Below, in pieces: positions 13,644-37,489 of a stretch of 64,000 nucleotides of DNA (position 1 is its first letter; each line of letters starts with the position of its first letter). Origin of the DNA: a virus (lineage: Duplodnaviria; Heunggongvirae; Uroviricota; Caudoviricetes); the IMG/VR virus record IMGVR_UViG_3300029705_000029; one strand, given 5' to 3'. Made by a program: the position numbers and the translations under genes. The notes under the pieces were generated by a model that was given only the letters and a program-made list of their open reading frames with translations, was not told where the DNA came from and did no database searches.

Positions 13644-13666
13644 ATGTAATTACCTCTTAAACTTTT

Positions 13667-14920: not shown

Positions 14921-14954
14921 ACGTTTTAACCTCTTAAAACTCTATTTTTATATG

Positions 14955-15170
14955 TTAACTTTCTGTACTTAAACCACAATGCTCAAGGATTGCTTTTGCT
15001 TCTTCAATAGTGAATGTTGCATATTCGGTATAACCATTGCCATTACATGCTTTGCAAACAACCTCTTCTCTTTCCATAGTGCCAGAAACATCGTCCATAT
15101 AGACTGTTTTCCAATTATAATGCTTGCCAATTCCTGCACAATTTCCACATGTTACTTGTATCACATTCAT
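14955..15170 (-). CDS. DnaJ-type CxxCxGxG zinc-finger-like small protein
   Basis: CGNCAGIGK...CKACNGNG. Confidence 0.45.
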   Translation of the reverse strand: MNVIQVTCGNCAGIGKHYNWKTVYMDDVSGTMEREEVVCKACNGNGYTEYATFTIEEAKAILEHCGLSTES

Positions 15171-15199
15171 AATTTTTACCTCATAAAAGTTTGTTTTTA

Positions 15200-15469
15200 T
15201 TAACTGCTCATTTCTTCATCTAGTAAAGTGGTTGACCTCGACAATACAATTGCAGGTTTATCACCAATATAACCATGCATAAATCCTCGTTTACCACACC
15301 AGACATCACGTAAGGAATTCCAGTCACCATTTGGATGCTCAATTGTCACATATGGGTCGCACCCAAAAGTTTTAATTTCTTTTTGTAACAGTTTAATTAA
15401 TTCCGACGCCTTCATTTGCGTTACACCCCATAAAATTCGTATTCTATGTGTCAATCCTCTCTCCTGCAA
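15200..15469 (-). CDS. Hypothetical protein
   Basis: ORF track. Confidence 0.45.
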   Translation of the reverse strand: MQERGLTHRIRILWGVTQMKASELIKLLQKEIKTFGCDPYVTIEHPNGDWNSLRDVWCGKRGFMHGYIGDKPAIVLSRSTTLLDEEMSS

Positions 15470-15636
15470 CCATACCTCTTCAGCTCCGCAACAAGCTCAC
15501 TCACTTCTTTGCGCAACCTCTTTAATTCACGCTCATATGTACCATCGTTATTATCCCATGATAAATTTTCAACTATTTCATCATAGTCATTGAACGCTTC
15601 AATAATTCTTTCAAGTCTTGTCATTTTCTTTGTCAC
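15451..15636 (-). CDS. Hypothetical protein
   Basis: ORF track. Confidence 0.4.
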   Translation of the reverse strand: MTKKMTRLERIIEAFNDYDEIVENLSWDNNDGTYERELKRLRKEVSELVAELKRYGCRRED

Positions 15637-15911
15637 CTTTCTTGTTTTAACTCTTCAAGATGTGTACAACCACTAGCCCAATCATCTGAAAGTCCAGAGC
15701 ATAAAGAGTTGCAATTTTTACAATACTTTTCAGTGTATTCTTCTCTTGTAAGCCTTTTGTTGTTATCAACTTGTATAGGTGTGCAAAATATGCTTGAAAC
15801 CCATTCCCAATGATTGTTGATATAAATCAAGAAATCTGGATCAAAACCGTCATTGTCTCGGATGCTATGCACATTATATTTGCCAAATTGATTGTAAAAA
15901 ACCTCAAACAT
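15633..15911 (-). CDS. Hypothetical Cys-containing protein
   Basis: ORF track. Confidence 0.45.
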   Translation of the reverse strand: MFEVFYNQFGKYNVHSIRDNDGFDPDFLIYINNHWEWVSSIFCTPIQVDNNKRLTREEYTEKYCKNCNSLCSGLSDDWASGCTHLEELKQER

Positions 15912-15924
15912 GTTATTTACCTCG

Positions 15925-20580: not shown

Positions 20581-22181
20581 CAAACGTCTTCAAATTTAAA
20601 ATCATTCAAGATTAACTGTCTGTAATAAGTTCTTCCAAAATATCCACTATCAAGCTGTCCCACTCCATAAAATTCTTTATCTTCTAGGTCCCACATATCA
20701 TCCCATCCATTAAAATTCCACTTAATAAATGTGACATTTGGGGTTGTAATTTTGAGGTGTTTGCCGCCCGACATATTGCCAACTTCGTAATCAGATACCT
20801 CTCCAATCATAACCGTAATTGGAGCAAATCCAGAGCCAGAAATTTTATTAATATCCTTAATCTGTTTAATTAGGATATCTGTAACTTGCTCTGCGTCAAG
20901 CTGAATATCAATATCACAAGACTGAACAAATTCGACGTCTCTCAGTACATCTTCTATTTTGTTTTTAAATTCTTCAAATCTATTAATTGGTATAAATGCG
21001 CCTGCGGCCAGCTCATGGCCCACACAAGATCCAATTCCAGTATCATTTACTATCTTGGTAAAATTATCTATACCAATTGCTCTCATAGACCCAGCGTAAC
21101 TATTGCCTACAGTTCTGAGCACAAACAATGGACGCTGATATTTTTCTAGCAATTTGTTACCCATCAAACCTGCGACTTCTGCATCAACATCGACAAAGAA
21201 GTACATACACTTTTGGTCTAGCTGTGCGTCTCCTTGTCTAATTAGCTCTTCCATCTGATCCGCCACAATATCGTTTTGCTTTTCTTTGCATTTCTTTAGA
21301 TCACGAATAAGAGCATTTACTTCTTTTGCATCGTCAGATAGAAACATCCTCATGGCCTTTTTGTTTTCACTCATTCTACAGGCAGCGTTCGCAAGAGGGG
21401 CCAGACCAAAACTGACAGCTTTGGAATCAAACCCATAAGAACCATTAATTTTTGAAATAGCAAGGTTTCTTTGGTGGTTGAAACCCTGATAACAAATATA
21501 TCTGTTTTCTGCCGACTGTTCGGAAACATCGCACATATCAGCAATAATACCTGCCGCTGCTAGATCCCAGAATTCTTCTGAATAGTCGTTCCAAGTTACT
21601 TCATCAATGTACTGACAAAACTTGAATACGACACCTGCACCACTTAGTGCTGGATTTGGGTAGTTGTTAGCAGAACTTATCAGACAAAATGGTAAATTTG
21701 CATCAATCAGTCGCTGCTCAATTAGGTGATGGTCACACACAATCAGCTTTGCACCTGTGTTTAGGATATTTTTATATACTTCTGGATCGTTGTTAAGAGA
21801 GTCAACAATAATTAGTGTGGTATTTTTGTCCAACATTTCAATCGGAAAATCTTCCGCACCATGCTTTTTACCTTCATTAATATATGTATCAATATTGTCA
21901 GTAAAATTTCGCAAGTATCTCGTCATAATTGTACCAGATGATAGACCATCCTGATCAACGTCGAAGAATACCACAAAACGATTGTTATCTTCGATTGTTT
22001 TTAATACAATATTACATCCCTCTTCAAGCCCTTGCATTTCTTCAAAAGGGACCATTGAATCTTCTGGTGGAGTCATAAAGGTTTTGTAATTTTTAATACC
22101 TCTGCTTTCCATAAGAGCTTCAATGATTTCAAGATGATCCATGTCTCTGCCATCTATTTTAATGTTCCAATTTTTCTTCAA
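20577..22181 (-). CDS. DHH/DHHA1 phosphoesterase (RecJ-like exonuclease or nano-RNase family)
   Basis: DHH motifs FFDVDQDG, IVCDHH and DHHA1 GHELAAGA. Confidence 0.7.
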   Translation of the reverse strand: MKKNWNIKIDGRDMDHLEIIEALMESRGIKNYKTFMTPPEDSMVPFEEMQGLEEGCNIVLKTIEDNNRFVVFFDVDQDGLSSGTIMTRYLRNFTDNIDTYINEGKKHGAEDFPIEMLDKNTTLIIVDSLNNDPEVYKNILNTGAKLIVCDHHLIEQRLIDANLPFCLISSANNYPNPALSGAGVVFKFCQYIDEVTWNDYSEEFWDLAAAGIIADMCDVSEQSAENRYICYQGFNHQRNLAISKINGSYGFDSKAVSFGLAPLANAACRMSENKKAMRMFLSDDAKEVNALIRDLKKCKEKQNDIVADQMEELIRQGDAQLDQKCMYFFVDVDAEVAGLMGNKLLEKYQRPLFVLRTVGNSYAGSMRAIGIDNFTKIVNDTGIGSCVGHELAAGAFIPINRFEEFKNKIEDVLRDVEFVQSCDIDIQLDAEQVTDILIKQIKDINKISGSGFAPITVMIGEVSDYEVGNMSGGKHLKITTPNVTFIKWNFNGWDDMWDLEDKEFYGVGQLDSGYFGRTYYRQLILNDFKFEDVW

Positions 22182-22927
22182 ATCATGTCATCCTCCAGTA
22201 CTACACAATTAATTTTTCCACTATGAGCGCAACAAGCATCAAGCGCAATAAAACCATCACCATAAAATGGGTCAAACTTTGCATCTGCTCCGAACTCACT
22301 GCGGCCTTCAAGTTTTGCCCAGCCAGTGCTGCAATGCCAATGGCCAAAAACAAGTGTTTTATTAGGAAGCAAACCGCATTCTGCAAGCTCAAACGGATCA
22401 CCCCATCTTGCATCATCCCACTGTGTTGCATGAGCTTCACGCCAATTTTCCATCTTTGTGTAGTTTTTGCCCCGAAGATAATACGGAGGTAGAATACTAT
22501 CACATTCAAGCGGGACAAAGCTGTGAACGAAGATGTAATTCTTAGTTTCTAAATAATTTACCATGCCGTCAACAAACTTTAAAACCTTTGGATAGATTGC
22601 TATACAAGCTTCTTCAAATGTATTGGCGCTTGGGGCAAGATCAATAATTGTTTGGGCGGTACCATTGCTCCAATCGTGCCCCTGTGGATATTCGCGTGCA
22701 AGACAATCCATTATGAGATCTTCGTGATTTCCGCGTATTAGAATTTTGCGCTCCAGAGACGCAAGATAGTCTATAACTTTATGTGGCTGTCTGCCCCTAT
22801 CGGTATAATCTCCAAGCCCTACCAGAAAATGATTTTTATTATTTTGATCAAATCCCGCTTCATCAAGCGCTTTGCACATTTCATCATAGAACCCATGCAC
22901 GTCACTGATGCAAAACAACTTTGCCAT
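22178..22927 (-). CDS. Calcineurin-like metallophosphoesterase (lambda-PPase/ApaH-like)
   Basis: Motifs DVHG, GDYTDRG and GNHE. Confidence 0.75.
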   Translation of the reverse strand: MAKLFCISDVHGFYDEMCKALDEAGFDQNNKNHFLVGLGDYTDRGRQPHKVIDYLASLERKILIRGNHEDLIMDCLAREYPQGHDWSNGTAQTIIDLAPSANTFEEACIAIYPKVLKFVDGMVNYLETKNYIFVHSFVPLECDSILPPYYLRGKNYTKMENWREAHATQWDDARWGDPFELAECGLLPNKTLVFGHWHCSTGWAKLEGRSEFGADAKFDPFYGDGFIALDACCAHSGKINCVVLEDDMI

Positions 22928-23312: not shown

Positions 23313-24194
23313 TTAGTGTGCGGCTTTATCTGCTTCGTGGAGCAAATCAATGTACTGCTTAAGATATGTAGGTAGATTGTTGTAATACTTACTATTAAAG
23401 AATGGTTCCATATGGTTACAAATTAACCAAGCTACAAACGGAGTAACATTTCTAATTCCATAAGACATCCATGCTCCATAGTTGTTATGAAAGTAAAAAT
23501 GCGCTATATCACAAGGATTACCCTTCGCATCCACAAACGCTTTCACTGCAGGCTTGCCAATGTCATGTAGCCATGCGGCCCATTGTAGTTCAAAATCATT
23601 GGTGGTCTTTAGCATATATTGGTAAGCTGCTTGGCAATGATCATAAATGTTCAGAGTATGATGAGGATTGTCATGTGGAATCTTCATTTCATCTACCAAT
23701 ATCATTTCATAAATACCATCATCATATTTAACAGATTTTACAACTTCAATGTGGTCAATACCTTCGTCGTACCATGGAGCCTGAAAACGCTTGAGCATCC
23801 TGCCAATTACTTCTGGACCAACAGTACGCTCTCTTTCGGCATCTCTTCTAATACAATCTTCAACAGGTGCCCAGATAATATGTGCCTCAATTTTTACAAA
23901 CTTTGGACATGCTGAAATGATATAAGCGCGATCTTTGCGAGTGATGTTCGTTGCGTCATACAGCACATTCTGACCATTGTTTAGTGCTTCGATTGCTCTG
24001 GACTGCATTAGAGAGAACACTTCATGGTTATCACCCTGAATCGCTTCATTCCCCCACAGTTCTTTTCTGATAGAATCAGAAGAAAGATGAATTACATTGT
24101 CGTGAAACTTTGCGTATTCTTTGGCATAGTAGGTTTTACCTGAACCAGGGATTCCTACGAGTAGAATTAGGGTTGGTCTGTTCATTTTAATCAC
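23313..24194 (-). CDS. Polynucleotide kinase (P-loop) fused to an HD-domain phosphohydrolase
   Basis: N-terminal GIPGSGKTYYA, as in the T4 Pnk kinase domain. C-terminal HD motifs (HLNIY..H...WLHDIGK). Confidence 0.6.
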   Translation of the reverse strand: MIKMNRPTLILLVGIPGSGKTYYAKEYAKFHDNVIHLSSDSIRKELWGNEAIQGDNHEVFSLMQSRAIEALNNGQNVLYDATNITRKDRAYIISACPKFVKIEAHIIWAPVEDCIRRDAERERTVGPEVIGRMLKRFQAPWYDEGIDHIEVVKSVKYDDGIYEMILVDEMKIPHDNPHHTLNIYDHCQAAYQYMLKTTNDFELQWAAWLHDIGKPAVKAFVDAKGNPCDIAHFYFHNNYGAWMSYGIRNVTPFVAWLICNHMEPFFNSKYYNNLPTYLKQYIDLLHEADKAAH

Positions 24195-24326: not shown

Positions 24327-25772
24327 TTATTCTTCCTGTGCTTCTTCTAGGTCTGGTTCAAGTGCTTCGTCCTTGATAATGCCCTCAAGAACCTTGAAAG
24401 AGAAGTTCTTATGCTTGTAGACCGCAATATTGGGACGATTTACGATACGAGCCACTACACCTTCGCGAATATGAGTCTTACCAATTGGGTCGGGGCCATC
24501 AAAGTATTCTTCAACCTTACGCAGGACATATTCGCCAGGGTTAACATGGATGCGCCTAGTTGCAACCCAGTTTTCAGCGAAATCAACAGCAGAATATTCT
24601 TTAATATATTCAGGAATAATGAATCGTTCAAATACGGGCACAGCATTTACGCCCATCTGTTCACAACGCATGCGCATCTGATCAGGAGACATCTCTACGA
24701 CATCACCGTCTTCGTTAGTCATAGTCATGCGGTAAACATAAACTTCGCACTTAGGAGGAAATACCTCAGTTGGAGATCCATTAGCAACATAAAAGCCATC
24801 TGGCTCAACAGAGTGAGGTTCCCAGCCACCAAGAGGTTCGCAACCATAAGAGAATACTGTTTCTTCACCGTACTGCTTAGAGAATTCTTTGTCCTTAATC
24901 TTGGAATTCTTTACAGATGCCATGATAGGGGTATCCTCGTTTACGAAGCCTACGATTTCGTAGTAGACCGTTTCGTTTTTACGTAGCTTACCTTCAAACT
25001 TCTTTGCCATCTCTAGTCTGAAATTGTTATCATCATAATATCCACCATCATGCTTGTCATCAAGAACAACACGACGAGTACCAGTTACATAACCATATTC
25101 CACATATTCCTTGCCAGGGCGACGACGAATCTTATCCCATAGAGTCTGCGGCTTACGATGATGCAGCGGCAGATAACCAGTACGACCGCTAGTTCCATGC
25201 ATCTTGAGCGTTAGCTCTACAATGTCTCCAGCCTTAAACTCACCCAGATTGTATGCCAGCTGTGCAGTATCAACATGCTCATAGAAAGTAGGTGCAAAAT
25301 TAGCCTTTGCTCTCTTGCCGCCACCACCATGATAAGTATGAGATGCATGATTGCGCCTTGGAATATACTTCTTGCAGATCTCCTTACCATTTAGCATAGA
25401 AATTGTATCGCCTTCCTTGAGATCAGAAATCTTACAGAAGTCAGCTAGGCAAGTTAGCGGAAGGAATAGTCCATCAGACTTTTCACCGCGAAGCTTTAGT
25501 GCCTTAATGTTGCGCTTTTCAGGGTCTAGATAACCACCACATAGATTGCCATTTTCATCCTTGCGACGCACAAGATCATTCGCCTTGCAAAATTCCTCAG
25601 ATAGCTGACCATCTACAGGGAAGTAAACGCCAAGCTGTCCTTCCATATAATCCATGGATACGATTACAGAGTTTCCAAAACATTCGCCAATCTGTAGGCG
25701 ATCTGCGTTAGAATGCTTGCGCACATTCTTTAGAATAGTAACAAAACCAGTGTATGCCATAATTCTTGCCAC
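24327..25772 (-). CDS. RNA ligase (Rnl2-like KxHGT nucleotidyltransferase) with an N-terminal tRNA-binding OB domain
   Basis: The N-terminus (KNVRKHSNADRLQIGECFG) resembles the Myf/CsaA tRNA-binding domain. Motif I is TLKMHGTSGR (KxHGT). Confidence 0.6.
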   Translation of the reverse strand: MARIMAYTGFVTILKNVRKHSNADRLQIGECFGNSVIVSMDYMEGQLGVYFPVDGQLSEEFCKANDLVRRKDENGNLCGGYLDPEKRNIKALKLRGEKSDGLFLPLTCLADFCKISDLKEGDTISMLNGKEICKKYIPRRNHASHTYHGGGGKRAKANFAPTFYEHVDTAQLAYNLGEFKAGDIVELTLKMHGTSGRTGYLPLHHRKPQTLWDKIRRRPGKEYVEYGYVTGTRRVVLDDKHDGGYYDDNNFRLEMAKKFEGKLRKNETVYYEIVGFVNEDTPIMASVKNSKIKDKEFSKQYGEETVFSYGCEPLGGWEPHSVEPDGFYVANGSPTEVFPPKCEVYVYRMTMTNEDGDVVEMSPDQMRMRCEQMGVNAVPVFERFIIPEYIKEYSAVDFAENWVATRRIHVNPGEYVLRKVEEYFDGPDPIGKTHIREGVVARIVNRPNIAVYKHKNFSFKVLEGIIKDEALEPDLEEAQEE

Positions 25773-26420: not shown

Positions 26421-26831
26421 TTACCCCTCGTAAATTTCAAATAGCCGTCCCATTGACATACCATTTGCTCTTCCAAGATCTACAGCCAAAGCACACATAT
26501 TGGACTCCATACCAACACCAAGACCTTTGTTAAAATAATCAATCAAAGAATCATATGTGTCGTTGCCGTCCCGCGTCTCCCACCCAATCATAAACTGTCC
26601 GTTCACTGTAAAGAAATCTGCAGGAGTTCCCATATTGCTGCCCTTGGAACTGCGCCACCAACCGAACTCTTCTGGCCACTCAATAACATCTTCAAGAGTC
26701 TTAAGATCCTTCTTGTTGATCTCCCAAACCTCATAATAGGGCTTATGTGAACTCTTATAAGTTCTTTTTGCGTCAATCTTTAGCACTTTAAATGCTCTAT
26801 GTAGTCCATCTCCACCAAAAAGTTCTGCCAT
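26421..26831 (-). CDS. Hypothetical protein
   Basis: ORF track; TAATG overlap with the upstream gene. Confidence 0.45.
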   Translation of the reverse strand: MAELFGGDGLHRAFKVLKIDAKRTYKSSHKPYYEVWEINKKDLKTLEDVIEWPEEFGWWRSSKGSNMGTPADFFTVNGQFMIGWETRDGNDTYDSLIDYFNKGLGVGMESNMCALAVDLGRANGMSMGRLFEIYEG

Positions 26832-27610
26832 TACTTATTCTCCTTTACCTTTAGATATTCTCTCATTGCCTTAATCATGTTGAGAATTTCTTTTTTATGT
26901 ACATTATTTTCCACCCAGTCAAAATAATCTGGCTCACTATTATAAACATCAAGATAGCGCTTGCCCTTATGCTTGCCAAAATCGATCACGGTGTCCTCAC
27001 TAAAAGTAATCGCCGCAGGCTGTTCTACAACAATATTGTCAAAGTCCAAGCTAATACTCTTTCTAGAAGCAAGATAGTCTGCCACATGAACCATTCTTGC
27101 ATACTTGTTGTTGGGCTTCGGAAGCTCAACATTACTCTTCTTATCCGTGTTCCACTGACCCATATGCTTTGAGATTGTATCTGCTACTAGTTCAAGTTCA
27201 TCATGATTTAGATACTTGCCATCAAAACTTCTAATAACATCTGCCATTAGCACTGGATGATCGAACTTAGTGTACTTAGACTTTTCATAGTCTTCCTGAG
27301 ATCCACTCTTGCGTCCGTCATGAATTAGTCCCGAAAGTCTAATAAGATCTCGTTCTCTACTTGTGAGCTTGCTGTTATACTGCTCTAGTTCCAAAAAGAA
27401 ATTCAAGAATCTTACTACTGCAACCTGATGTCTCATAAGCCCCATTTCACCAAGTGAGTACGCTGGATGATACTTGCCTGTACTAGACGCTCCTACGCGC
27501 CAAATATAATCAGGGAGATCTTCAAGTAACACCATGGCAAATTCCTTGATGTCTTCGTTTTCAAACGTGTTTAAAATCGGTTGCACAAAATCGAGTCTTT
27601 CTTGCGTCAT
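26831..27610 (-). CDS. HD-domain phosphohydrolase
   Basis: H...LSGLIHDGRKSG...D pattern; C-terminal FGKHKGKRYLDV motif. Confidence 0.55.
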   Translation of the reverse strand: MTQERLDFVQPILNTFENEDIKEFAMVLLEDLPDYIWRVGASSTGKYHPAYSLGEMGLMRHQVAVVRFLNFFLELEQYNSKLTSRERDLIRLSGLIHDGRKSGSQEDYEKSKYTKFDHPVLMADVIRSFDGKYLNHDELELVADTISKHMGQWNTDKKSNVELPKPNNKYARMVHVADYLASRKSISLDFDNIVVEQPAAITFSEDTVIDFGKHKGKRYLDVYNSEPDYFDWVENNVHKKEILNMIKAMREYLKVKENK

Positions 27611-29678: not shown

Positions 29679-30294
29679 AGTCTTTTTCAATTAATAGCCA
29701 AACGCCGCCAGATGTAACACCCATTGATAGCGCATCAGAATGAGTTTCAACTGCGATATCAATTTGCTTATTCTTCACTGCACCACCGCAGTCATCTGCT
29801 GTGCGCCATCCATAACCTTCGATATATACTTTACTTCCATATGGAATTACCGTTGGGTCCACCGCAATAGTGCGTCCAGCTGTTACTTGTGTGCCTGTTG
29901 CGGTAATACCATCACCTGTGCCGCAAATATGAGATCGTAGTTCGCAACAGTAGTGAGTCAGCTTAAACTCTCCAATATAAACTAATTCATATTCAATATA
30001 TTTTAGCGCTAAAATCGTCTCATTTGCTTCGCCTAAGGATTTGGTCGCGGAGTCCAATTCGGCGGCTAATTTCTCTGATTTTGTATACTCTAACTGTAAG
30101 TTTTCGGTAACAGAAGCGAGCTCTTCCTGTGTCGCTTGCAATAAAGTGCTCTGTTCGTTCAGCTTATTGGTCGTATCTGCCAGCTCACTTCTTGATGAAG
30201 CGCACCAAGCGAACACAGAAAGTACAGCTACAGCTGCAGTAACTCCAATTATACTAAATATTGTGTCTTTAACCATCATGTCTAATCCTTTCAA
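29674..30294 (-). CDS. 3D-domain (MltA/YocH-like) cell-wall-active protein with N-terminal TM and coiled coil
   Basis: THYCCELRSHICGTGDGITATGT...AGRTIAVDPTVIPYGSKVYIEGYG...ADDCGGAVK. Confidence 0.65.
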   Translation of the reverse strand: MKGLDMMVKDTIFSIIGVTAAVAVLSVFAWCASSRSELADTTNKLNEQSTLLQATQEELASVTENLQLEYTKSEKLAAELDSATKSLGEANETILALKYIEYELVYIGEFKLTHYCCELRSHICGTGDGITATGTQVTAGRTIAVDPTVIPYGSKVYIEGYGWRTADDCGGAVKNKQIDIAVETHSDALSMGVTSGGVWLLIEKDS

Positions 30295-31402
30295 CCAATT
30301 TTGTTATAATGTCTGCTGCGGTGTCAATTTCTTGCTCTGTGTTTTCGCGTCCAAGAGTAATACGAACGCTACTCAGTGCTTCTTTGTTTGACAAACCAAT
30401 TGCCTTGAGCACATGAGATGGCGTTGGCTCATACGATTGGCATGCGGATCCTTTGCCGATATATAAATCATATAGCCCACACAGCGTTACCAATCTTTCA
30501 GCGTCAACTCCATCAATAGTAAGATTAATGTTATTCGCAAGCCTGCTTGATCCAACTGAGACCCCATTTAAAGTTGTACCTGAAATTTGCAGTAGTTTGT
30601 TTAATAGTTTGTCACGCAAACTTGTAATGCGATCCTGTACGCCAAACATATTATGGTTGCGAGTAATACTTAGCGCCTCGCCCATTCCTGCAATAGCTGC
30701 TGTGTCATATGTTCCTCCGCGCAGTTCATTTTCCTGTGATCCATAAATAATTGGTGTCAGTTCAATTCCATTTTTAACGTATAAAAATCCTGCACCACGA
30801 GGTCCACAAAACTTTTGAGCAGATACGGATACCATGTCAACACCAAGTTCTTTTACGTCAATACGCTGCTCTGGGTACAACTGAGTTGCGTCTGTGTGTA
30901 AAATGCAATTACAATCATGCACAGTTTGCGCAATAGCTTTAAGATCTTGTATTGTGCCAATTTCTCCGTTTGCCGCACCGATAGATACTAGAGATTTATG
31001 AGCTGGAAACTTAGTGAGGCTGCGAGAGTATTTTAGAAATGTTGGTCGAAGTTTTACATAACCTTGCTCATCATTTTCTATAAACATTGCGCGTGGCATT
31101 TTATAAATAGATGCATGTTCCATACGCGTAGTCCACCAACGAGCACCATTATGTGCTTTGAGATAGCCCTGAATTGCCATACTATTGGATTCGCATGCGC
31201 CGCTTGTGAAGATAATTTCTGTTGGGTCTGCGTTAATATCTTCTGCAACTTGCACTCTCACACCTTCAATAATTTTCCTAGCGCTATCACCAATTGCATA
31301 TGGACTTGACGGGTTGCCCCAACATGTTTTCATAACATGAGCCATAGTAGCAATAACTGACTCATATGGTTTTGTAGTCGCTGCATTGTCAAGATAAATC
31401 AA
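30269..31402 (-). CDS. Cysteine desulfurase (NifS/IscS class V aminotransferase)
   Basis: YLDNAATT N-terminus, SVSAQKFCGPRGAGFLYV (PLP lysine region) and the active-site loop GKGSACQS. Confidence 0.75.
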   Translation of the reverse strand: MIYLDNAATTKPYESVIATMAHVMKTCWGNPSSPYAIGDSARKIIEGVRVQVAEDINADPTEIIFTSGACESNSMAIQGYLKAHNGARWWTTRMEHASIYKMPRAMFIENDEQGYVKLRPTFLKYSRSLTKFPAHKSLVSIGAANGEIGTIQDLKAIAQTVHDCNCILHTDATQLYPEQRIDVKELGVDMVSVSAQKFCGPRGAGFLYVKNGIELTPIIYGSQENELRGGTYDTAAIAGMGEALSITRNHNMFGVQDRITSLRDKLLNKLLQISGTTLNGVSVGSSRLANNINLTIDGVDAERLVTLCGLYDLYIGKGSACQSYEPTPSHVLKAIGLSNKEALSSVRITLGRENTEQEIDTAADIITKLVERIRHDG

Positions 31403-31490: not shown

Positions 31491-32483
31491 TTACTCCTCT
31501 CCACCCATTGGAATATCAATAATTGGAAGTGCGCCAGAACCCATCATATAAGTTGGAAGGTTGCCAGTCCAGTTCTGTGCGTACTCATAAGCAACAACTT
31601 CGTTTGTGATAGCTTCTGCAAGAGCCTTAGTAGCTTCCGCTTCCTTTTCGCCCTTGTAAGCAATTGCATCAGCCTCAAGCTGTGCTACTTCAAAGTCGGC
31701 CTGAGCCTTAATGCGAGCGGCTTCAGCTTCTGCGTTTGCGTTAATTTCACGAATTGCAGCATCATTTTCGGCCTGAATCTTAGTGCGCTCAGCAGACTGT
31801 CGAGTACGCTCTGTTTCCATCTGCTGCTGAGTCTTGTCACGAAGAGCTTCCTGCTCGGCCACCTGCTTTGCTTCGATTGCAGCAGTGTAAGCATCAGAGA
31901 AATCAAAGTCATCAATTACAACAGCGACTTCAATACCATACTTAGACGCGAAAGTAGAAACCGTGGCATCAATGTTACTCTGCAGCTGAGTGCGTAGTTC
32001 AGTCATGTTTTCTGCCTCAACAAGACCAAATTCTGCCTTGATTGCGTTGTTAACCTGCGGCTTAATTAGAATGTTGAAATAATCAATACCAACAGTCTTG
32101 TAGATATTAGGCGCGGAAGATGAAAGCAGATTGTACTTTACAGTGTAAGTGTAAACAACTTCCTGTAGGTCAGAAGAAAAGCACACGTTTCGTTCAGTAA
32201 AAATCTGTTCCTTGTTCGTCATAGTCGTGATATTCTGCCATGGCGCGTGAATGTTCATGCCTTCTGGTAGGTTTCTATCTTCTACGCGACCAAAGGTGGT
32301 AAGAATACCAGTATGACCAGTAGGCACCGTAGAGATACAAGAACTACCAATAATAACCACCGCAAGAATTACTGCGATTACGCTTGCAATACCACCGATG
32401 CGGCTACATTCGAGCTTGGATGCAACAATGGGGATTACAATTGCGGCGATTAGAAGTAGGATACCGATTACGACACTAAACAT
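31491..32483 (-). CDS. SPFH/band-7 (prohibitin/HflK-like) membrane protein
   Basis: N-terminal TM, TGHTGILTTFGRV SPFH core and an Ala/Glu-rich coiled-coil C-terminus. Confidence 0.7.
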   Translation of the reverse strand: MFSVVIGILLLIAAIVIPIVASKLECSRIGGIASVIAVILAVVIIGSSCISTVPTGHTGILTTFGRVEDRNLPEGMNIHAPWQNITTMTNKEQIFTERNVCFSSDLQEVVYTYTVKYNLLSSSAPNIYKTVGIDYFNILIKPQVNNAIKAEFGLVEAENMTELRTQLQSNIDATVSTFASKYGIEVAVVIDDFDFSDAYTAAIEAKQVAEQEALRDKTQQQMETERTRQSAERTKIQAENDAAIREINANAEAEAARIKAQADFEVAQLEADAIAYKGEKEAEATKALAEAITNEVVAYEYAQNWTGNLPTYMMGSGALPIIDIPMGGEE

Positions 32484-32639
32484 AAGGACACCCTTTCTTT
32501 TTGTGTTTTATTTTAAGGCTTGTGCAGTGGCGTCCCACCGTATTAACCTGGGTTGAAAAAACCAATACTCTAAATGTTTCCATCCGTTATTGGTGAAAGT
32601 TATACCCCTTTTTCACGCACAATTTAATAATACCTTACC

Positions 32640-32713
32640 TGGAGCATCGTACCAGATTCGGACTGGCACTCCAACCTTGGAAGGGTTGTGTGCTACCATT
32701 ACACCAACGATGC
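32640..32713 (-). tRNA. tRNA-Gly (anticodon TCC)
   Basis: Minus-strand GCATCGT...anticodon loop CTTCCAA...T-loop TCCGAAT...ACGATGC-T-CCA. Confidence 0.8.
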
Positions 32714-32774
32714 ATATTTGCATAAGCTCTAGTTTAAACACCTACACGACGTGAACATACTTATGCTGGTAGGC

Positions 32775-32910
32775 TTGTCCCTCTGGGACTCGAACCCAGA
32801 CTATGCCTTGCTAGGGCCTACGGCTTATTGGTGACAGATTGTAGATTTGCACTACAATATCCTAAATGAATCTGCCAAGGCCGTGGCTCTCACCATTGAG
32901 CTAAGGGACA
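32775..32910 (-). tRNA. Atypical ~136-nt tRNA-like gene with a ~50-nt insertion in the anticodon arm (type II-like long variable arm)
   Basis: Canonical 7-bp acceptor (TGTCCCT/AGGGACA), U8, A14, D-arm GCTC/GAGC and T-arm CTGGG-TTCGAGT-CCCAG. The anticodon-stem halves ACGGC and GCCGT are separated by about 55 nt that fold into an extended hairpin (ATTGTAG-TGCAAAT-CTACAAT). Confidence 0.5.
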
Positions 32911-33446
32911 TTATAAAGCGGTTTTTCTTTCGGACATCTCCTATTGAGGTATGGATTACCGAAAACCACTAAGGTAGGCACATGTGCGTCACTTTCCTCA
33001 ACAAGCTAAAACACTTTAAAAGCCTTGGTGGGCAAGGTTGGTGCCGCCCCAACTACTCCCGAAGGAAACGGGTTTACAGCCCGTCGCGTTTGCTGATTCG
33101 CTACTTGCCCAAGGTGTCACGCCATTTTGAGACTAACGTGCTGTCTTGGCTTTTTGTTGTCGTTGTTTCACAGGTGCCATAACCAACGCCTTTCTCATGT
33201 TGCCACATATTAAGCCTGTGTTATTGAGAAATAGTAAGAGTCAATACCAGCTTGGTGCACGTGGAGGGCCACGATCCCTCAATCCCTTACGGGCACTGGT
33301 TTTTGAGACCAGCTTGTATGCCAATTCCAACACACGTGCGCATGCCCAACACTTGTCCATGCACCCACGAAAATTCGCACGTCAGCTGTTGGCACTGAAC
33401 AGAAACCATTTGAGCTCAGAGGCCGTTTACTGTCATATTACCTCTC

Positions 33447-33583
33447 TGGTGCTGGATACCAGACTTGAACTGGTACGGTATATTTCAACCAGCGGATTTT
33501 TTGTGATAGGCATGAGTGATGACCTCACTACTGCTCTGGCAACCCACCAAGTCCGCTGTGTCTGCCGATTCCACCAATCCAGC
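33447..33583 (-). tRNA. Atypical ~137-nt tRNA-like gene with a ~55-nt insertion in the anticodon arm; CCA encoded
   Basis: Perfect 7-bp acceptor GCTGGAT/ATCCAGC followed by A-CCA; T-arm ACCAG-TTCAAGT-CTGGT; 3-bp D-stem; anticodon-stem halves GCGGA and TCCGC separated by about 55 nt. Confidence 0.5.
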
Positions 33584-34232
33584 ATATCGGGCAGTTTTAC
33601 ATCTTGCCCAGGATGCCGATTAAAACTTCGGACCATCCTCCAAGTTGGAATAAGCAAATACAATCATAAGCAATTTCCTCCTTTGGATTATTTACTGCTG
33701 CTAACTAGAACGTCGAAACATAACTCCAATTACGAATAAGGAGCGACCTTTGTCCAGCGGACGCTATGCCCGAAATCCTTACAACCTAACAGTGTGGGAG
33801 CGACCTCGGTTAAAACTTTTTATTATATTGAGCTTGCTACTTACCAGCCACGGAGACAACCTATGGGCCTTGACCACCAACCCAAACTCTTTATCGTGGA
33901 TTTGGTAAATCTTTTGTGGACTACGCATTCTTCTGCGATCTTAGCCCTCTTTACAACCTTAATAAACGACCTTTGATCAAATCAATCTTTGAAGTTTGAA
34001 CGTTAAATTTTGAACCTTGATCCTTAATCTTTACAGCAACACTTATAATATATATCATATATTTTAAATCTTTATCATGCCTAAAAGATTTACAGTATAA
34101 GATTCTTGCTTAACGGGCAAGTCTTCTATTAATTGAAGATACTTTCTTTAACTTATTAATATCACTCTAAGTATCAAAAAGAAGAGATAAGCAGTCGTTT
34201 AAGGTTTCCGATAAGTAGCAAGCAAGTTTGCC

Positions 34233-34979
34233 TTAGTACTCGAACTCGATAACAGTTACAGCGTTGGAAACACTGAGAGCTGCATCAACTTCAGTTTCAA
34301 ACTCATTAATCTCGTCCATGAGATTTTCCATAAGGTTAGTGACGCCAAGCGGGTCAATTAGGTCATAAGTATTGTTCGTAATGTAATCCTTGCGAAGAGC
34401 CTTCATTGCATCACTATCGATAGCCATCTTAGAATCCTTAGGCTGAGCCTGGATTACAGACAGCACATACTGTTCAGCTCGCTTTTCAATGGCTTCGCCA
34501 CTATTACGATCAAGCTCAACATATGCTGCGCGATAGTTGTCTACAATGCGCTGACGAAGAATCTTCTTGTATTCCATGCCGTGATTCTTCTCTTCGATAG
34601 CCTCAGCGACCGTCATTTCCTTTTCGCCAACTACAACCTTGGTGGTTGCATTGGAAATCACAACAGCTCGCTTCATTGCGTCACGACGCGCAATTAGAGA
34701 CTGAACCTTCTGGTAAGCACTCTTGATGTTTTCCTTGAACTCGGCCACGGTAACTCCGTTAACCTTTTCTGCTGAGTGCTTAACTGCCATCGCGTAAGGA
34801 TGTGCGTTAATTGCCTTTAGGATGCGATCATCCATAGTCTTGAGTTCTGCAAGTGCCTTGTGAACCGTCATCTTTTCCTGAGTCATTTTCTTGTACCCCC
34901 TAATAAGCTTTGAATCATTAATTTTGTACTGTTTCCCTTGAACTGGAATTAGTATATCACACATTCCATATTCTGTCAA
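34233..34979 (-). CDS. Hypothetical protein
   Basis: 248-aa ORF; sigma-70-like promoter TTGACA-N17-TATACT at 34950-34980 plus the conserved motif upstream. Confidence 0.5.
   Translation of the reverse strand: MTEYGMCDILIPVQGKQYKINDSKLIRGYKKMTQEKMTVHKALAELKTMDDRILKAINAHPYAMAVKHSAEKVNGVTVAEFKENIKSAYQKVQSLIARRDAMKRAVVISNATTKVVVGEKEMTVAEAIEEKNHGMEYKKILRQRIVDNYRAAYVELDRNSGEAIEKRAEQYVLSVIQAQPKDSKMAIDSDAMKALRKDYITNNTYDLIDPLGVTNLMENLMDEINEFETEVDAALSVSNAVTVIEFEY
34917..34937 (-). promoter_or_regulatory. Conserved motif copy (class 2)
   Basis: Upstream TTGACA-N17-TATACT at about 34950-34980. Confidence 0.5.
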
Positions 34980-35003
34980 TAGAGTTTTTAAATCTTAACA
35001 AAA

Positions 35004-35080
35004 TGGCGTCCCAGGAGAGATTCGAACTCCCGACACACGGCTTAGAAGGCCGTTGCTCTATCCTACTGAGCTACTGGGAC
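35004..35080 (-). tRNA. tRNA-Arg (anticodon TCT)
   Basis: GTCCCAG...CTTCTAA...TTCGAAT...CTGGGAC-G-CCA. Confidence 0.8.
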
Positions 35081-35329
35081 ATAATATGGTAGGGTATCTC
35101 CAACCTACCGCGAACTACTAACAACATCACTTGCGTTTATTCTTTAGCAAGCATCCAATCAAGGCTGTGATGAACCCTGCTTGCCGCCGAAGACTAACTT
35201 GAATTATAAAGCCTAATAGTTTGTGGACTTGAACCACACAGCGCTCTTCCACTGGCCATCCTGCAACGTACCATATAACTTTTCGAGCAGTTTCTTCTCA
35301 ACTGGTTTAACGTGCGAAGTCAGCACGGC

Positions 35330-35405
35330 TGGTGGAGATGATGGGACTCAAACCCACGACTTTTACCTTGCAAGGGTAACACTCTATCAACTGAGTTACA
35401 TCCCC
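35330..35405 (-). tRNA. tRNA-Ala (anticodon TGC)
   Basis: GGGGATG...CTTGCAA...TTTGAGT...CATCTCC-A-CCA. Confidence 0.8.
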
Positions 35406-35821
35406 ATAAAATGTGTATACCAGTTTTGATTGGGACGAAGACTGGAAACTTCTTTTCTCTCGACTCGCTCCGTAGAGTCGGCTTAACCGACGTACTATTC
35501 TGTCTCGCATACACTTTCTGAGACTTGTGAAGAGAGCATTCACAATAGCGACCTAAGCCTTTTTGCCGTTAGAAAGCATTATCTTGTCGCCTGGATAGGT
35601 GGACTTTTGGAACGTGCACCACCATACACTCCGTCCTATATCTAACTGGACATTTCGCTTTTCTTTCAGATAAAAATCTTAGCTGCTTTGTGGTTTTGCG
35701 ATAACCCATAGTGTTCTCCATCAAGTACCGCATGGCAGCACGGGATTGACTTCACAGAACGAGCCTAATCTCAAGTATTAGGCAAAACACGTGTATGATA
35801 TTCTAAGTGTCATACCCGCTG

Positions 35822-35912
35822 TGGCGGAGATGGTGAGCTTTGAACTCACGCGCCAATTTCTTGACCTAATCGGTTAGCAACCGATCCCCTTCAACCGCTT
35901 GGGTACATCTCC
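35822..35912 (-). tRNA. tRNA-Ser (anticodon GCT), type II
   Basis: GGAGATG...TTGCTAA, long variable arm, TTCAAAG T-loop, CATCTCC-G-CCA. Confidence 0.75.
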
Positions 35913-35915
35913 ATG

Positions 35916-36006
35916 TGGCGACTGGTTTCGGACTTGAACCGAAACACCCTTTCGGGTTACTGGCAGATTTCGAATCTGCTGCCTTACCAATTAGGCTTAA
36001 CCAGCC
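35916..36006 (-). tRNA. tRNA-Ser (anticodon CGA), type II
   Basis: GGCTGGT...TTCGAAA, long variable arm (CAGTAACCCGAAAGGGTGT), TTCAAGT, ACCAGTC-G-CCA. Confidence 0.7.
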
Positions 36007-36016
36007 GCATGATTGA

Positions 36017-36139
36017 TTACTTCTGCTCCAGCTGTCTAATCTGACGCTTTAGCTTATTAATGATGTTTGCGTTGCCAACAGGATCTCTCTGCTGTAGAAG
36101 GTTAATACGTGCCTGAAGTCGTTCAACAGTCTTAGTCAT
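36017..36139 (-). CDS. Small basic coiled-coil protein (40 aa, hand-called) embedded in the tRNA array
   Basis: ATG at 36139 after GGAGGTATAAAATC; product MTKTVERLQARINLLQQRDPVGNANIINKLKRQIRQLEQK. Confidence 0.35.
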   Translation of the reverse strand: MTKTVERLQARINLLQQRDPVGNANIINKLKRQIRQLEQK

Positions 36140-36214
36140 GATTTTATACCTCCATTATTAATTAAATATGGTAGCAGTGTTTTTAGTCCATATTAAACTA
36201 GGCACCCACCTCTG

Positions 36215-36248
36215 TGGATCCCGCCAGGATTGAACTGACATCTCTGCT
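36215..36248 (-). other. Orphan tRNA 3'-half-like fragment (T-arm plus acceptor 3' strand) abutting tRNA-Thr
   Basis: Minus-strand GTCAG-TTCAATC-CTGGC followed by GGGATCC-A, with no matching 5' half nearby. Confidence 0.3.
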
Positions 36249-36324
36249 TGGAGCCGAGTATCGGACTTGAACCGATAGCCTGCTGATTACAAATCAGCTG
36301 CTCTGCCAATTGAGCTAACTCGGC
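36249..36324 (-). tRNA. tRNA-Thr (anticodon TGT)
   Basis: GCCGAGT...TTTGTAA...TTCAAGT...ACTCGGC-T-CCA. Confidence 0.8.
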
Positions 36325-36432
36325 ATAAAATAGTCTAAGACTCTTCCGTCCTGTCAAGGATAGGTCATCGCTTGTTTCTAGCCAAACCAAGAATCAATTA
36401 ACTCGAAAACGCTTTTACATTCTTAGACTATA

Positions 36433-36507
36433 TGGCTGGGAACCAGGGTAACGCTCCCCGTCTTCATGGGTCAAAGCCATGCGTACCAACTTTTATACGA
36501 GTTCCCA
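36433..36507 (-). tRNA. tRNA-Gln-like (anticodon TTG) with a non-canonical T-loop
   Basis: TGGGAAC acceptor pairing with GTTCCCA-G-CCA; D-arm GTAT/GTAC; anticodon arm CATGG-CTTTGAC-CCATG; T-arm CGGGG-AGCGTTA-CCCTG lacks the TTC. Confidence 0.45.
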
Positions 36508-36625
36508 TCATTGACCCAACTTTCTGCTCCTTGTATGCTTGCATCAGAGGCCAGGACGCTCTCTCCGTATTGGGTCGGAGTACGTATATTTCACTACTCA
36601 CGTGTCTGTTCGCGAAACAGCATGT

Positions 36626-36700
36626 TGGCGGTCACGGTGTGACTCGAACACACAACCTAGCGGTTAACAGCCGCTTGCTCCACCATTGAGCTACGTGACC
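36626..36700 (-). tRNA. tRNA-Asn (anticodon GTT)
   Basis: GGTCACG...CTGTTAA...TTCGAGT...CGTGACC-G-CCA. Confidence 0.8.
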
Positions 36701-36871
36701 ATATGGTGTCTCTACAGGCGGGGCCAGTGCAGCGACCCTATATGAGGGCTTTCCACGAACTACTTTTGCAACATTTTGTATGTCTGTTAATCTTACTGCC
36801 GTCAGCTAATTGGCAGTCGTTGCTATCCTTGTTCCGTACTAACACCTATACATTGCACTACCTGTAGAGAG

Positions 36872-36947
36872 TGGTGGGTGATTGGAGAATCGAACTCCAG
36901 ACGCCATGATTAAAAGTCATGTGCTCTACCAACTGAGCTAATCACCC
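36872..36947 (-). tRNA. tRNA-Lys (anticodon TTT)
   Basis: GGGTGAT...CTTTTAA...TTCGATT...ATCACCC-A-CCA. Confidence 0.8.
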
Positions 36948-36962
36948 ATATCGTGCGCCAGT

Positions 36963-37037
36963 TTATAGTCTTGGCGCAGGACTTCCCTTAACGGGTGGAC
37001 TATCCAGATCATTGCCGATTTCACGAATTCTCTTCAT
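36963..37037 (-). CDS. Candidate leader mini-ORF (24 aa) between the conserved promoter motif and tRNA-Lys
   Basis: GGGAGGATGATTCAT-ATG; product MKRIREIGNDLDSPPVKGSPAPRL; lies directly upstream of the tRNA array. Confidence 0.25.
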   Translation of the reverse strand: MKRIREIGNDLDSPPVKGSPAPRL

Positions 37038-37051
37038 ATGAATCATCCTCC

Positions 37052-37072
37052 CATTAATTTTGTACTGTCTTG
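37052..37072 (-). promoter_or_regulatory. Conserved motif copy (class 2) heading the tRNA array
   Basis: Motif followed by GGGAGG and the 24-aa mini-ORF, then tRNA-Lys. Confidence 0.5.
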
Positions 37073-37144
37073 CTTCGTTTGAAGTGTATTTATTATAACA
37101 CATCTTCCAGCATTTGTCAATACCTTTTTTCAAAAAACTTTATG

Positions 37145-37489
37145 TTAAGTATTTTCCTTGAACGTTTCACTTACTCGATCATTAAGTCGTTCAAGCGCCT
37201 TCTTGAACATCGCAATCTTAGAATCAAAGCACTTGTAATACTTCTTCATAAGCTTTGCCTTAGCGATCCGCTCACCAGTTGCTTCATCATAAACATCGTC
37301 ACCATGGCAGTGAGTTTCTACCCTAAAAGTATCTGGCATCATGTACTTATCATCAAACATGAAATCATCAGTTCCAAATTCGCTTGTTAGCTTTAGGATC
37401 TTATTACAAGCATCAAACTGAGTGCCGTTTAGCACAGCTACCGTCTTCTTCTGTTCTGGAACGTGATAATAATTAATTGCCATTTTCAT
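37145..37489 (-). CDS. Hypothetical protein
   Basis: ORF track. Confidence 0.45.
   Translation of the reverse strand: MKMAINYYHVPEQKKTVAVLNGTQFDACNKILKLTSEFGTDDFMFDDKYMMPDTFRVETHCHGDDVYDEATGERIAKAKLMKKYYKCFDSKIAMFKKALERLNDRVSETFKENT

Follow-up and report, generated by a model that had tools for sequence, protein, structure and literature searches.

Short introns without open reading frames (ORFs) sit in the anticodon loops of archaeal and eukaryal transfer RNAs (tRNAs), where a bulge-helix-bulge motif is cut by the endonuclease EndA or TSEN and a ligase joins the exons; group I introns, ribozymes of more than 200 nt, occupy the anticodon loop of bacterial tRNAs such as the cyanobacterial tRNA-Leu(UAA). 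Here we analyse a 64,000-nt stretch of the IMG/VR virus record IMGVR_UViG_3300029705_000029 (Caudoviricetes; this whole stretch is called the window), whose tRNA cluster includes two genes, TL1 and TL2, each interrupted in the anticodon loop by a 48-nt insert that is itself shaped like a small tRNA. Genes of the same architecture recur in uncultured related phages. On the reading that we favour, to which the sequence evidence leads us to give a probability of roughly 0.55, the insert would be cut out by RNase P and by an endonuclease acting after its CCA end, and the two tRNA halves would be sealed by a phage RNA ligase.

Like the bulge-helix-bulge introns, the phage inserts are short, ORF-less, located in the anticodon loop and presumably removed by enzymes, with joining by a ligase; they differ in lacking that motif, in lying mostly between nucleotides 34 and 35, in being found in a bacterial virus and in having a tRNA shape with a CCA end. 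They share with the group I introns the anticodon-loop location, the U before the 5' junction, the U34/A35 split point of tRNA-Leu(UAA) and an occurrence that varies among relatives; however, at 47–105 nt they have no ribozyme core and no Rfam match. Separate tRNA halves, often joined in the anticodon loop, are also known from the split and permuted tRNA genes of Nanoarchaeum, Caldivirga and Cyanidioschyzon, but these use the bulge-helix-bulge motif, whereas the phage halves lie in one transcript around a tRNA-like element.

The acceptor/T-arm stack with discriminator and CCA that is seen in the inserts also marks a set of tRNA-like processing signals, namely mitochondrial tRNA punctuation, the mascRNA of MALAT1, the dimeric tRNA precursors of phage T4 and the minihelix substrates of RNase P; the phage signal differs in being nested in the anticodon loop of another tRNA, and its excision would break an RNA that then needs religation. 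The repair of PrrC-cut tRNA-Lys by T4 Pnkp and Rnl1 likewise combines a phage kinase/phosphatase and ligase with a break beside U34 in a U34 tRNA; that break is host-nuclease damage to an intact tRNA, whereas the one proposed here would be a programmed maturation step. The tRNA-like processing signals and T4 anticodon-loop repair are the closest functional analogues, and neither has a tRNA inside a tRNA. The initial annotation of this stretch had also compared the two loci to the species 1 and 2 RNAs of T4 (rnaC and rnaD), which are stable RNAs of 119–139 nt from a phage tRNA cluster, rnaC having a T-arm-like hairpin. This likeness breaks down on reading and folding rnaC and rnaD: they have no normal D arm or anticodon stem, no nested 7/5-bp helix ending in CCA and no anticodon-loop halves. 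Full-text literature searches, whose coverage was incomplete so that an earlier report is possible, brought up no account of phage tRNAs with tRNA-like inserts in their anticodon loops.

The interrupted tRNA genes TL1 and TL2

The two genes and their parts are as follows.

32910 to 32775, minus strand: TL1, tRNA gene with a 48-nt insert in the anticodon loop
32877–32910, minus strand: TL1 exon 1, with the acceptor 5' strand, D arm, ACGGC and loop nucleotides C32 U33 U34; inside the Rfam tRNA match
32829–32876, minus strand: TL1 insert, a 48-nt mini-tRNA with 7/7 and 5/5 pairs; passes the strict geometry scan
32775–32828, minus strand: TL1 exon 2, with A35 U36 A37 A38, GCCGU, variable region, T arm, acceptor 3' strand and discriminator A
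33583 to 33447, minus strand: TL2, tRNA-Leu(UAA) gene with a 48-nt insert in the anticodon loop
33549–33583, minus strand: TL2 exon 1, with the acceptor 5' strand, Leu-type D arm (GGUGGAAUCGGCAGACAC), GCGGA and C32 U33 U34
33501–33548, minus strand: TL2 insert, a 48-nt mini-tRNA with 7/7 (two G-U) and 5/5 pairs
33447–33500, minus strand: TL2 exon 2, with A35 A36 A37 A38, UCCGC, long variable arm, T arm, acceptor 3' strand, A73 and CCA

TL1 has an acceptor stem of seven perfect pairs (UGUCCCU/AGGGACA), U8, a D arm closed by GCUC/GAGC, an anticodon stem (ACGGC/GCCGU) whose halves lie 55 nt apart, a 20-nt variable region, a T arm reading CUGGG-UUCGAGU-CCCAG and a discriminator A, with CCA not encoded. 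TL2 has the acceptor stem GCUGGAU/AUCCAGC, U8, a Leu-type D stem of 3 bp, an anticodon stem (GCGGA/UCCGC) whose halves are again 55 nt apart, a variable arm, the T arm ACCAG-UUCAAGU-CUGGU and a discriminator A followed by an encoded CCA. The textbook tRNA features and split anticodon stems that the initial annotation had reported are thus all present in both loci. The tRNA-like nature of the inserts, the UAU anticodon of TL1 and the Leu(UAA) identity of TL2 go beyond it.

ARAGORN in its default mode calls neither gene; with intron detection, a check that had been proposed for these loci, it calls both as tRNAs with 48-nt introns. The Rfam tRNA model (RF00005) matches TL1 at 48.6 bits (gathering score 29) by treating 52 nt of the anticodon loop as an insertion, and does not match TL2. 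Phage tRNA repertoires are thus undercounted, given that default ARAGORN finds neither locus and Rfam one. The 1.1-kb region with both loci is 100% identical in seven independently assembled contigs (JGI, ENA and Logan) and the architecture recurs in 38 distinct genes; the interrupted loci are therefore neither a product of chance nor an assembly artefact.

Anatomy of the inserts

Both inserts follow one plan. An acceptor-like stem of 7 bp leads through a linker of 13 nt to a T-like stem of 5 bp that closes a loop of 7 nt; the discriminator is A, and the end is CCA in TL1 and CAA in TL2. The TL1 insert reads GGCAGAU - 13-nt linker - UGUAG - UGCAAAU - CUACA - AUCUGUC - ACCA. Its acceptor-like stem pairs GGCAGAU (32876–32870) with AUCUGUC (32839–32833) in 7/7 positions, the linker covers 32869–32857, the T-like stem UGUAG/CUACA (32856–32852 with 32844–32840) has 5/5 pairs around the loop UGCAAAU (32851–32845), and the discriminator A and CCA occupy 32832–32829. 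The TL2 insert reads GGUGGGU - 13-nt linker - GUGAG - GUCAUCA - CUCAU - GCCUAUC - ACAA, with GGUGGGU (33548–33542) pairing with GCCUAUC (33511–33505) in 7/7 positions, two of them G-U, a linker (33541–33529) containing CCAGAG, the T-like stem GUGAG/CUCAU (33528–33524 with 33516–33512; 5/5) around the loop GUCAUCA (33523–33517), and A plus CAA at 33504–33501. The two inserts have only their ends in common; the loop and linker type of TL2 recurs in three loci of related phages, which are given L numbers here (L002 439–561, L012 3003–3126 and L048 1960–2092).

The insert is thus the acceptor/T-arm stack of a tRNA with a single-stranded NCCA tail, and it retains only the parts that are recognised by tRNA end-processing enzymes. 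This anatomy is secure. The hairpin with terminal loop UGCAAAU that had been noticed in the first insert does exist; it is not, as had been supposed, a coaxial extension of the anticodon stem but the T-like arm of the tRNA-shaped insert. Our own first fold, with a P1 helix UUGG/CCAA, a 3-nt UCA bulge and an extended anticodon helix, was dropped when homologues showed the 7-bp stem and the A-CCA register.

A family of interrupted tRNAs in related phages

Relatives were reached by three routes. A pattern made from the shared insert ends led to four syntenic IMG/VR contigs; a conserved HD-domain protein encoded near the cluster, used as query, gave 29 more loci; and a pattern specific for interrupted Leu(UAA) genes matched 23 contigs from at least a dozen samples, as well as a 147-kb contig binned as an uncultured Prevotella. 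Interrupted genes were counted with the intron mode of ARAGORN and our own parsing, and two loci (L003 and L055) were discarded as chance pattern matches. The search of other phages for the same architecture, which the initial annotation had suggested, yielded 38 distinct interrupted tRNA genes with 35 distinct inserts of 47–105 nt in uncultured related phages, and the nested pairings are backed by covariation.

In all 38 genes the first 7 nt of the insert pair with the 7 nt before N-CCA, and the 5+7+5 nt that precede the latter form a hairpin; this register is set by the two insert ends and was not tuned by hand. The 3' end is CCA in 35 of the 38 and CAA in three (including TL2), the discriminator is A in 30 of the 38, the nucleotide at -1 is U in 36 of the 38, and that at +1 is G in 26 and C in 11. 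For covariation analysis we placed 18 sequences, with the linker removed, in a pseudo-alignment of fixed register (MAFFT put the 5' strands out of register). Standard pairs fill 97.7% of the cells, and 11 of the 12 pairs show compensatory changes; the covariation score of 1.078 compares with 0.278 for shuffled alignments (0/500 reach the observed value) and with 0.10–0.23 when partners are slid. The equivalent of the pair G53:C61 is invariant and that of C56 nearly so. A strict scan for such elements, in which both stems had to be fully paired (7/7 and 5/5) with a G-C closing pair and the linker had to measure 8–30 nt and the end to read NCCA, found 22 in 0.82 Mb as against 0–1 in shuffles, and 17 of the 22 lie within anticodon loops.

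The smallest inserts, or minis (47–56 nt, TL1 and TL2 included), consist of the acceptor stem, T-like arm and tail with only a short linker, which in many of them contains CCAG(U/A)G. The T-like loop UGCAAAU of TL1 is near-canonical, and the classes represented by GUCAUCA of TL2 and by GGCAGCA lack U54 and A58. The variable base of AG-N-G in the minis tracks position 5 of the T-like loop (U/G ten times, A/U four times, C/G once), and this covariation hints, as a lead, at a tertiary contact that replaces the elbow between D-loop and T-loop. The long inserts (71–105 nt) begin with UAG, resembling U8-A9-G10, and five inserts are called by ARAGORN as full tRNAs, two of them with odd anticodon loops. 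For instance, a normal-looking tRNA-Asn(GUU) is nested in a tRNA-Lys(UUU) (L039 6847–6996, minus strand), and tRNAs with the anticodon CUA (amber-suppressor-like; labelled Pyl by ARAGORN) are nested in tRNA(UAU) genes (L002 2702–2855, minus strand; L022 4076–4227, plus strand). The inserts thus form a continuum from full tRNAs to minis, and the cases of a full tRNA within a tRNA represent a new mode of gene packing.

Among cultured phages, a blastn search with the region against 50,697 phage records returned only ordinary tRNA-Leu matches. Bacillus phage PBC2 has no tRNAs in the 92 kb covered (record positions 1–50000 and 60801–102045), and Geobacillus virus E3 has no annotated tRNA in the stretch by its helicase gene, the site of the cluster in the window.

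Some tRNA-like elements of the relatives stand apart from this family. A free-standing 46-nt element like a mini-tRNA lies outside any anticodon loop (L023 7835–7880, plus strand), as does a 64-nt tRNA-like gene that has acceptor, D and T arms and GCCA and no anticodon arm (L044 4600–4663, plus strand). A second class of interrupted tRNA-like genes comes in adjacent pairs or triplets with a conserved AACAGCAA(G/T)TTT motif and no CCA end (L001 12781–12900, minus strand; L004 12342–12461 and 12468–12593, minus strand; L013 839–1238, L016 1637–1888 and L021 1269–1519, plus strand); a subfamily of it resembles a tRNA-Asn(GUU) in which some 44 additional nt separate the D arm from the anticodon arm, and brute-force deletion gave ambiguous results. 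No member of this second class occurs in the window.

Comparison with known intron types

The location of the inserts in the anticodon loop, and above all the U34/A35 site of tRNA-Leu(UAA), which is the classical site of the cyanobacterial group I intron, might suggest one of the known types, i.e., a group I intron or small ribozyme, or a bulge-helix-bulge intron cut by the splicing endonuclease. We consider this extremely unlikely. As the initial annotation had argued from their length, the inserts are not group I introns: at 48 nt they have no group I core, and none of the intron and ribozyme families of Rfam is matched at E <= 1 within 32400–37200. Nor are they of the archaeal type that it had likewise discounted, for their junctions do not allow a bulge-helix-bulge: the 5' one is right against the acceptor-like helix, the 3' one falls within a single-stranded stretch of 8 nt, and the sole 4-bp candidate helix (UUGG/CCAA in TL1) is absent in most family members. 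The usual site, 34/35 (29 of the 38 genes), also differs from the canonical 37/38 of bulge-helix-bulge introns, and the encoded CCA ends and type II tRNA-Tyr mark the cluster as one of bacterial type.

Host tRNAs after in-silico excision

Removing the sequence from the first insert base through CCA leaves a 7-nt anticodon loop with U33 and A37 in all 38 genes, and ARAGORN without intron mode recognises each of the 38 excised sequences as a full-length tRNA whose anticodon fits its body; e.g., Gln-type bodies (D arm UAGCCAAGUGGUAAGGC, G73) carry UUG and Lys-type bodies carry UUU. Excised TL1 is an 88-nt tRNA(UAU) whose D stem has 4 bp and whose variable arm measures 20 nt, its junction joining GGCCUU to AUAAGCC (k-mer GAGCCACGGCCTTATAAGCCGTAGGCCC). 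Excised TL2 is an 89-nt tRNA-Leu(UAA) with a Leu-type D arm and A73, its junction joining GGACUU to AAAAUCC (k-mer ACACAGCGGACTTAAAATCCGCTGGTTG). Excision in silico cleanly restores canonical tRNAs, and the proposal of tRNA genes that carry a short intervening sequence of an unusual kind is supported.

The label tRNA-Pro(tgg) that ARAGORN gives to TL1 was rejected: it reflects an arbitrary intron placement, and the boundaries used throughout the family (CUU before the insert, CCA at its end, AUAA after it) give UAU, in agreement with the orthologue in L010. The TL1-type tRNA is also interrupted in L010 (1025–1165) and is present as an uninterrupted 96-nt gene in L004, L018 (4647–4742) and L021 (4459–4554). 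This host type, with its UAU anticodon, 4-bp D stem, long variable arm and no encoded CCA, is odd yet conserved in relatives, and the synthetase that charges it is in question. A loose and poorly designed junction pattern run on a metagenome collection returned only ordinary bacterial tRNA-Leu(UAA) genes; the reconstituted anticodon arm of TL2 is of a sequence type that many such genes share.

Thirteen excised Leu(UAA) sequences share a type II cloverleaf in which 15 of the 23 pairs show compensatory changes, including pairs of the anticodon stem that flank the insert; their invariant loop and inner stem stem partly from the search pattern, and genes found without the pattern show the same. 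Because the cloverleaf pairs are kept by compensation, the loops are intact and the anticodon matches the body, the interrupted genes appear to evolve as working tRNAs. The initial annotation had also entertained tRNA-like decoys or regulators, a reading that finds no support in such compensatory anticodon-stem changes and intact 7-nt loops with U33 and A37.

A related alternative is that the halves are never rejoined, or that no processing takes place, the outer tRNA serving as a scaffold for the inner RNA, as a source of tRNA halves or as a decoy for anticodon nucleases. Some inner elements are full tRNAs that could be of use in their own right, i.e., Asn(GUU) and the suppressor-like CUA tRNAs, tRNA scaffolds are known to stabilise RNAs inserted in them, and all of the interrupted tRNAs have U34, the class hit by anticodon nucleases. 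Against this, the loop halves sum to a canonical 7-nt loop with U33 and A37, with an anticodon matching the body, in 38 of 38 genes, and the outer anticodon stem is kept by compensatory evolution. Moreover, neither ARAGORN mode finds an uninterrupted tRNA with anticodon UAU or UAA in the window, and the 47–50-nt minis, which lack D and anticodon arms, are not useful tRNAs. We regard an outcome without religation as unlikely.

Insertion sites and possible mobility

The insert follows nucleotide 34 in 29 of the 38 genes, 35 in five, 36 in three and 32 in one. Every host anticodon has U34 (UAA 16, UAU 7, UUU 7, UUG 6, UGU 1 and UUC 1), as against 52% of the 191 distinct uninterrupted tRNAs from the same loci. 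The 22 interrupted genes outside the Leu-pattern selection are likewise all U34, for which the p-value of 7e-7 is naive, the genes being phylogenetically non-independent. The abundant U34 tRNAs with C35 or G35 (Gly UCC, Arg UCU, Pro, Ser and Ala) are almost never interrupted.

Presence and absence of the insert vary among sister phages. The uninterrupted tRNA-Leu(UAA) of L006 and L011 has the acceptor stem and D arm of the interrupted gene of L008 and L009, and the uninterrupted tRNA-Lys(UUU) of L005, L017 and L020 has the acceptor stem of the interrupted gene of L004, L018 and L019; for instance, L005 4003–4078 (uninterrupted) and L004 7989–8139 (interrupted) have the acceptor stem CAGGAUG in common. 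Four kinds of tRNA (Leu, Gln, Lys and UAU) carry related inserts with the loop GGCAG[C/U]A and the linker CCAGUG, and conversely the single site 34/35 of Leu(UAA) hosts inserts with at least four loop types. This distribution of related inserts over different tRNAs, and of different loop types at one site, suggests that the inserts are mobile.

Such variable presence and apparent spread would also be expected if the genes were pseudogenes, i.e., tRNA genes that a selfish tRNA-derived mobile element has inactivated and that are yet to decay. Against this, the Leu(UAA) exons and inserts have diverged widely, yet every stem is kept by compensation and the loop is intact; TL1 and TL2 are identical in the seven independent assemblies, and no intron-less allele of their exons is found in IMG/VR. 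We consider this reading very unlikely.

A reverse transcriptase gene lies in the window at 55527–56786 on the minus strand (RVT_1, E = 8e-21). The protein is like the reverse transcriptases of group II introns, although its score is far below their cutoff, and is perhaps relevant if the inserts spread via an RNA intermediate.

A proposed splicing pathway

On the favoured reading, RNase P would cut where the insert begins, just as it trims the front of other tRNAs, leaving exon 1 to end in U34 with a 3'-OH, and an endonuclease would cut directly 3' of CCA, as the RNase Z of Thermotoga maritima does, leaving exon 2 with a 5' phosphate. The tRNA body would keep the halves in place while the ATP-dependent RNA ligase of the phage closes the anticodon-loop nick; should the ends be of another chemistry, the kinase and phosphatase encoded nearby could heal them. 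This mechanism is plausible; we infer the identity of the cutting enzymes, and indeed the occurrence of ligation at all, from the sequences.

Several strands of evidence are consistent with it. In minihelix model substrates the determinants of RNase P are a 12-bp stack, U at -1, G at +1 and RCCA, and determinants of this type (12-bp stack, U at -1, G at +1, A-CCA end) are conserved in the inserts. The nested full tRNAs need RNase P processing in any case. Cleavage by RNase P and RNase Z yields 3'-OH and 5'-phosphate ends, the kind that ATP-dependent ligases can join, and a nick beside U34 is the very substrate sealed by T4 Rnl1 after PrrC damage. A cut directly after CCA has a precedent in the T. 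maritima RNase Z (PMC7479834).

Candidates for the joining enzymes lie 7–10 kb downstream of the tRNA cluster.

24327–25772, minus strand: RNA ligase of the DraRnl/DRB0094 type (N-terminal OB plus adenylyltransferase); phrog_968, E = 2e-65
23313–24194, minus strand: polynucleotide kinase (P-loop) fused to an HD phosphohydrolase; AAA_33 and HD, phrog_505
22178–22927, minus strand: calcineurin-like (Metallophos) phosphoesterase, similar to the phosphatase module of bacterial Pnkp; an accessory role is possible

The ligase, which also matches PF09414 and PF21189 weakly and TIGR02306 in part, may be the exon-sealing enzyme. The kinase-HD protein matches the kinase part of bacterial Pnkp, and its HD part that of the CCA-adding enzyme; it would be an end-healing enzyme, possibly accessory. 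In the loci anchored by the HD-domain protein, an RNA ligase occupies the same slot in 19 of the 19 relatives that bear a tRNA cluster, always with a polynucleotide kinase alongside. The slot ligases are of three non-orthologous types (two with OB plus adenylyltransferase, one of the T4 Rnl1 type), and that one type can take the place of another at a constant position speaks for the ligase activity as such being under selection. By contrast with the cluster-bearing loci, most of which also have RlaP-like and Thg1-like genes, none of the 10 tRNA-less distant relatives carries ligase, kinase, RlaP-like or Thg1-like genes. The RlaP-like nucleotidyltransferase and Thg1-like (tRNA 5'-end repair) genes are exemplified by L008 (14343–15149 and 16092–16907) and are absent from the window. 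Ligases of the DRB0094 family have been reported to be 140-fold enriched in one set of tRNA-rich gut phages, with a role proposed only tentatively (PMC10879173).

Several points weigh against the proposed route. As ligase/kinase modules are common in tRNA-rich phages for repair against anticodon nucleases, the position of the ligase near the cluster is not specific to splicing. The CAA end of TL2 and two other inserts would weaken the contact of RNase P with CCA, and the T-like loops of many minis (GGCAGCA and GUCAUCA) are non-canonical in lacking the bases noted above. The RNase Z of Bacillus subtilis is inhibited by CCA, and CCA-containing precursors are matured there by exonucleases (PMC7479834). 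The 3' cut is the weak point, because trimming by exonucleases would consume exon 2 and the host looks Bacillota-like. Finally, sequence searches of the neighbouring ORFs in the window against Pfam, PHROG, NCBIfam and PDB gave no nuclease candidate.

Alternatively, excision and joining could depend on a dedicated phage or host endonuclease that recognises the mini-tRNA and leaves, perhaps, 2',3'-cyclic phosphate and 5'-OH ends to be healed before ligation. In favour of this, Bacillota-type RNase Z is blocked by CCA, and the kinase-HD fusion and Metallophos phosphatase, for which 3'-OH and 5'-phosphate ends would leave no task, lie by the ligase; the conserved HD-domain protein (26831–27610), kept at 44–84% identity across the 29 relatives retrieved with it as query, could also be brought in. 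However, the conserved features, i.e., U at -1, G at +1, the 12-bp stack and A-CCA, are exactly the determinants of RNase P and RNase Z, some inserts are ordinary tRNAs for which RNase P is needed anyway, and the lack of an endonuclease candidate among the ORFs searched counts here too. We consider such a dedicated enzyme unlikely.

If the inserts are excised and the exons rejoined, viruses of bacteria would have enzyme-dependent tRNA splicing, which has been thought confined to archaea and eukaryotes, and would have assembled the pathway from known parts, i.e., RNase P, a 3' endonuclease and an RNA ligase. The ligase and kinase genes enriched in tRNA-rich phages would thereby gain a housekeeping function, and the 48-nt minis would define, via natural selection, the minimal RNA still recognised by the processing machinery.

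More broadly, we tentatively raise the possibility of a splicing pathway beyond the group I and bulge-helix-bulge types, in which the intron is a tRNA or mini-tRNA that is excised by the end-processing enzymes of the cell, a phage ligase rejoins the exons, and introns may arise and spread at the RNA level. A mature tRNA, with its 5' phosphate and the 3'-OH of CCA, could be joined by a repair ligase into an anticodon loop that an anticodon nuclease has cut beside U34, and the ligated RNA could then be copied back into DNA. Such an origin would explain why the inserts run from +1 to CCA, why only U34 tRNAs are targets and why tRNA-rich phages keep RNA ligases.

The phage and its tRNA cluster

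The window belongs to a phage whose genome measures about 171.5 kb, for which three independent assemblies give 171,495, 171,514 and 171,516 bp; one protein of this phage is present on 23 contigs from JGI, ENA and Logan samples. The phage occurs, for instance, in JGI 3300018878 and 3300022660, ENA ERZ27248370 and Logan SRR7031497. The G+C content is about 38% and the genes lie on the minus strand. Even the nearest cultured phages are far removed, with 34% identity between the helicase and its counterpart in Geobacillus virus E3 and 44–46% identity between the RNA ligase and those of large Bacillus siphophages, the closest being that of Bacillus phage PBC2 (46%). The cluster and the site upstream of it are as follows.

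36947 to 32640, minus strand: tRNA cluster (ARAGORN and sequence reading)
37092–37120, minus strand: putative promoter upstream of the cluster, with TTGACA, a 17-nt spacer, TATAAT and an extended TG (sequence reading only)

In addition to the interrupted genes, the cluster has 11 ordinary tRNAs, each with an encoded CCA (ARAGORN), and a bacterial-type (type II) tRNA-Tyr with a long variable arm. Because of the promoter-like site, the encoded CCA ends, this tRNA-Tyr and the strong GGAGG sequences ahead of ORFs, the host is taken to be bacterial, probably one of the Bacillota.

A cysteine desulfurase gene of the IscS/NifS type (30269–31402, minus strand), conserved in relatives, adjoins the cluster; its product could supply the 2-thiolation of U34, the tRNA class that bears the inserts. 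Elsewhere in the window, 3.3 kb (12626–15924) are without an ORF of at least 110 aa on either strand and have its lowest G+C content (0.34–0.36). Within the cluster we found a drum RNA (RF02958; 35651–35760, minus strand; 68.6 bits) and a weaker drum-like match (32914–33025, minus strand; 33.3 bits, below the gathering score of 43) that fills the spacer between tRNA-Tyr and TL1 exactly. A sub-threshold match to the RAGATH-27 RNA (34137–34222, minus strand; 41.7 bits against a gathering score of 76.1) lies just downstream of a 248-aa ORF within the cluster. The spacers between the tRNAs measure 100–550 nt (minus strand: 33111–33252, 33340–33446, 33584–34136, 35081–35329, 35406–35650, 36007–36248, 36325–36432, 36508–36625 and 36701–36871), and some contain lone T-arm-like hairpins, e.g., UGUGG-UUCAAGU-CCACA near 35233 and another near 36234.

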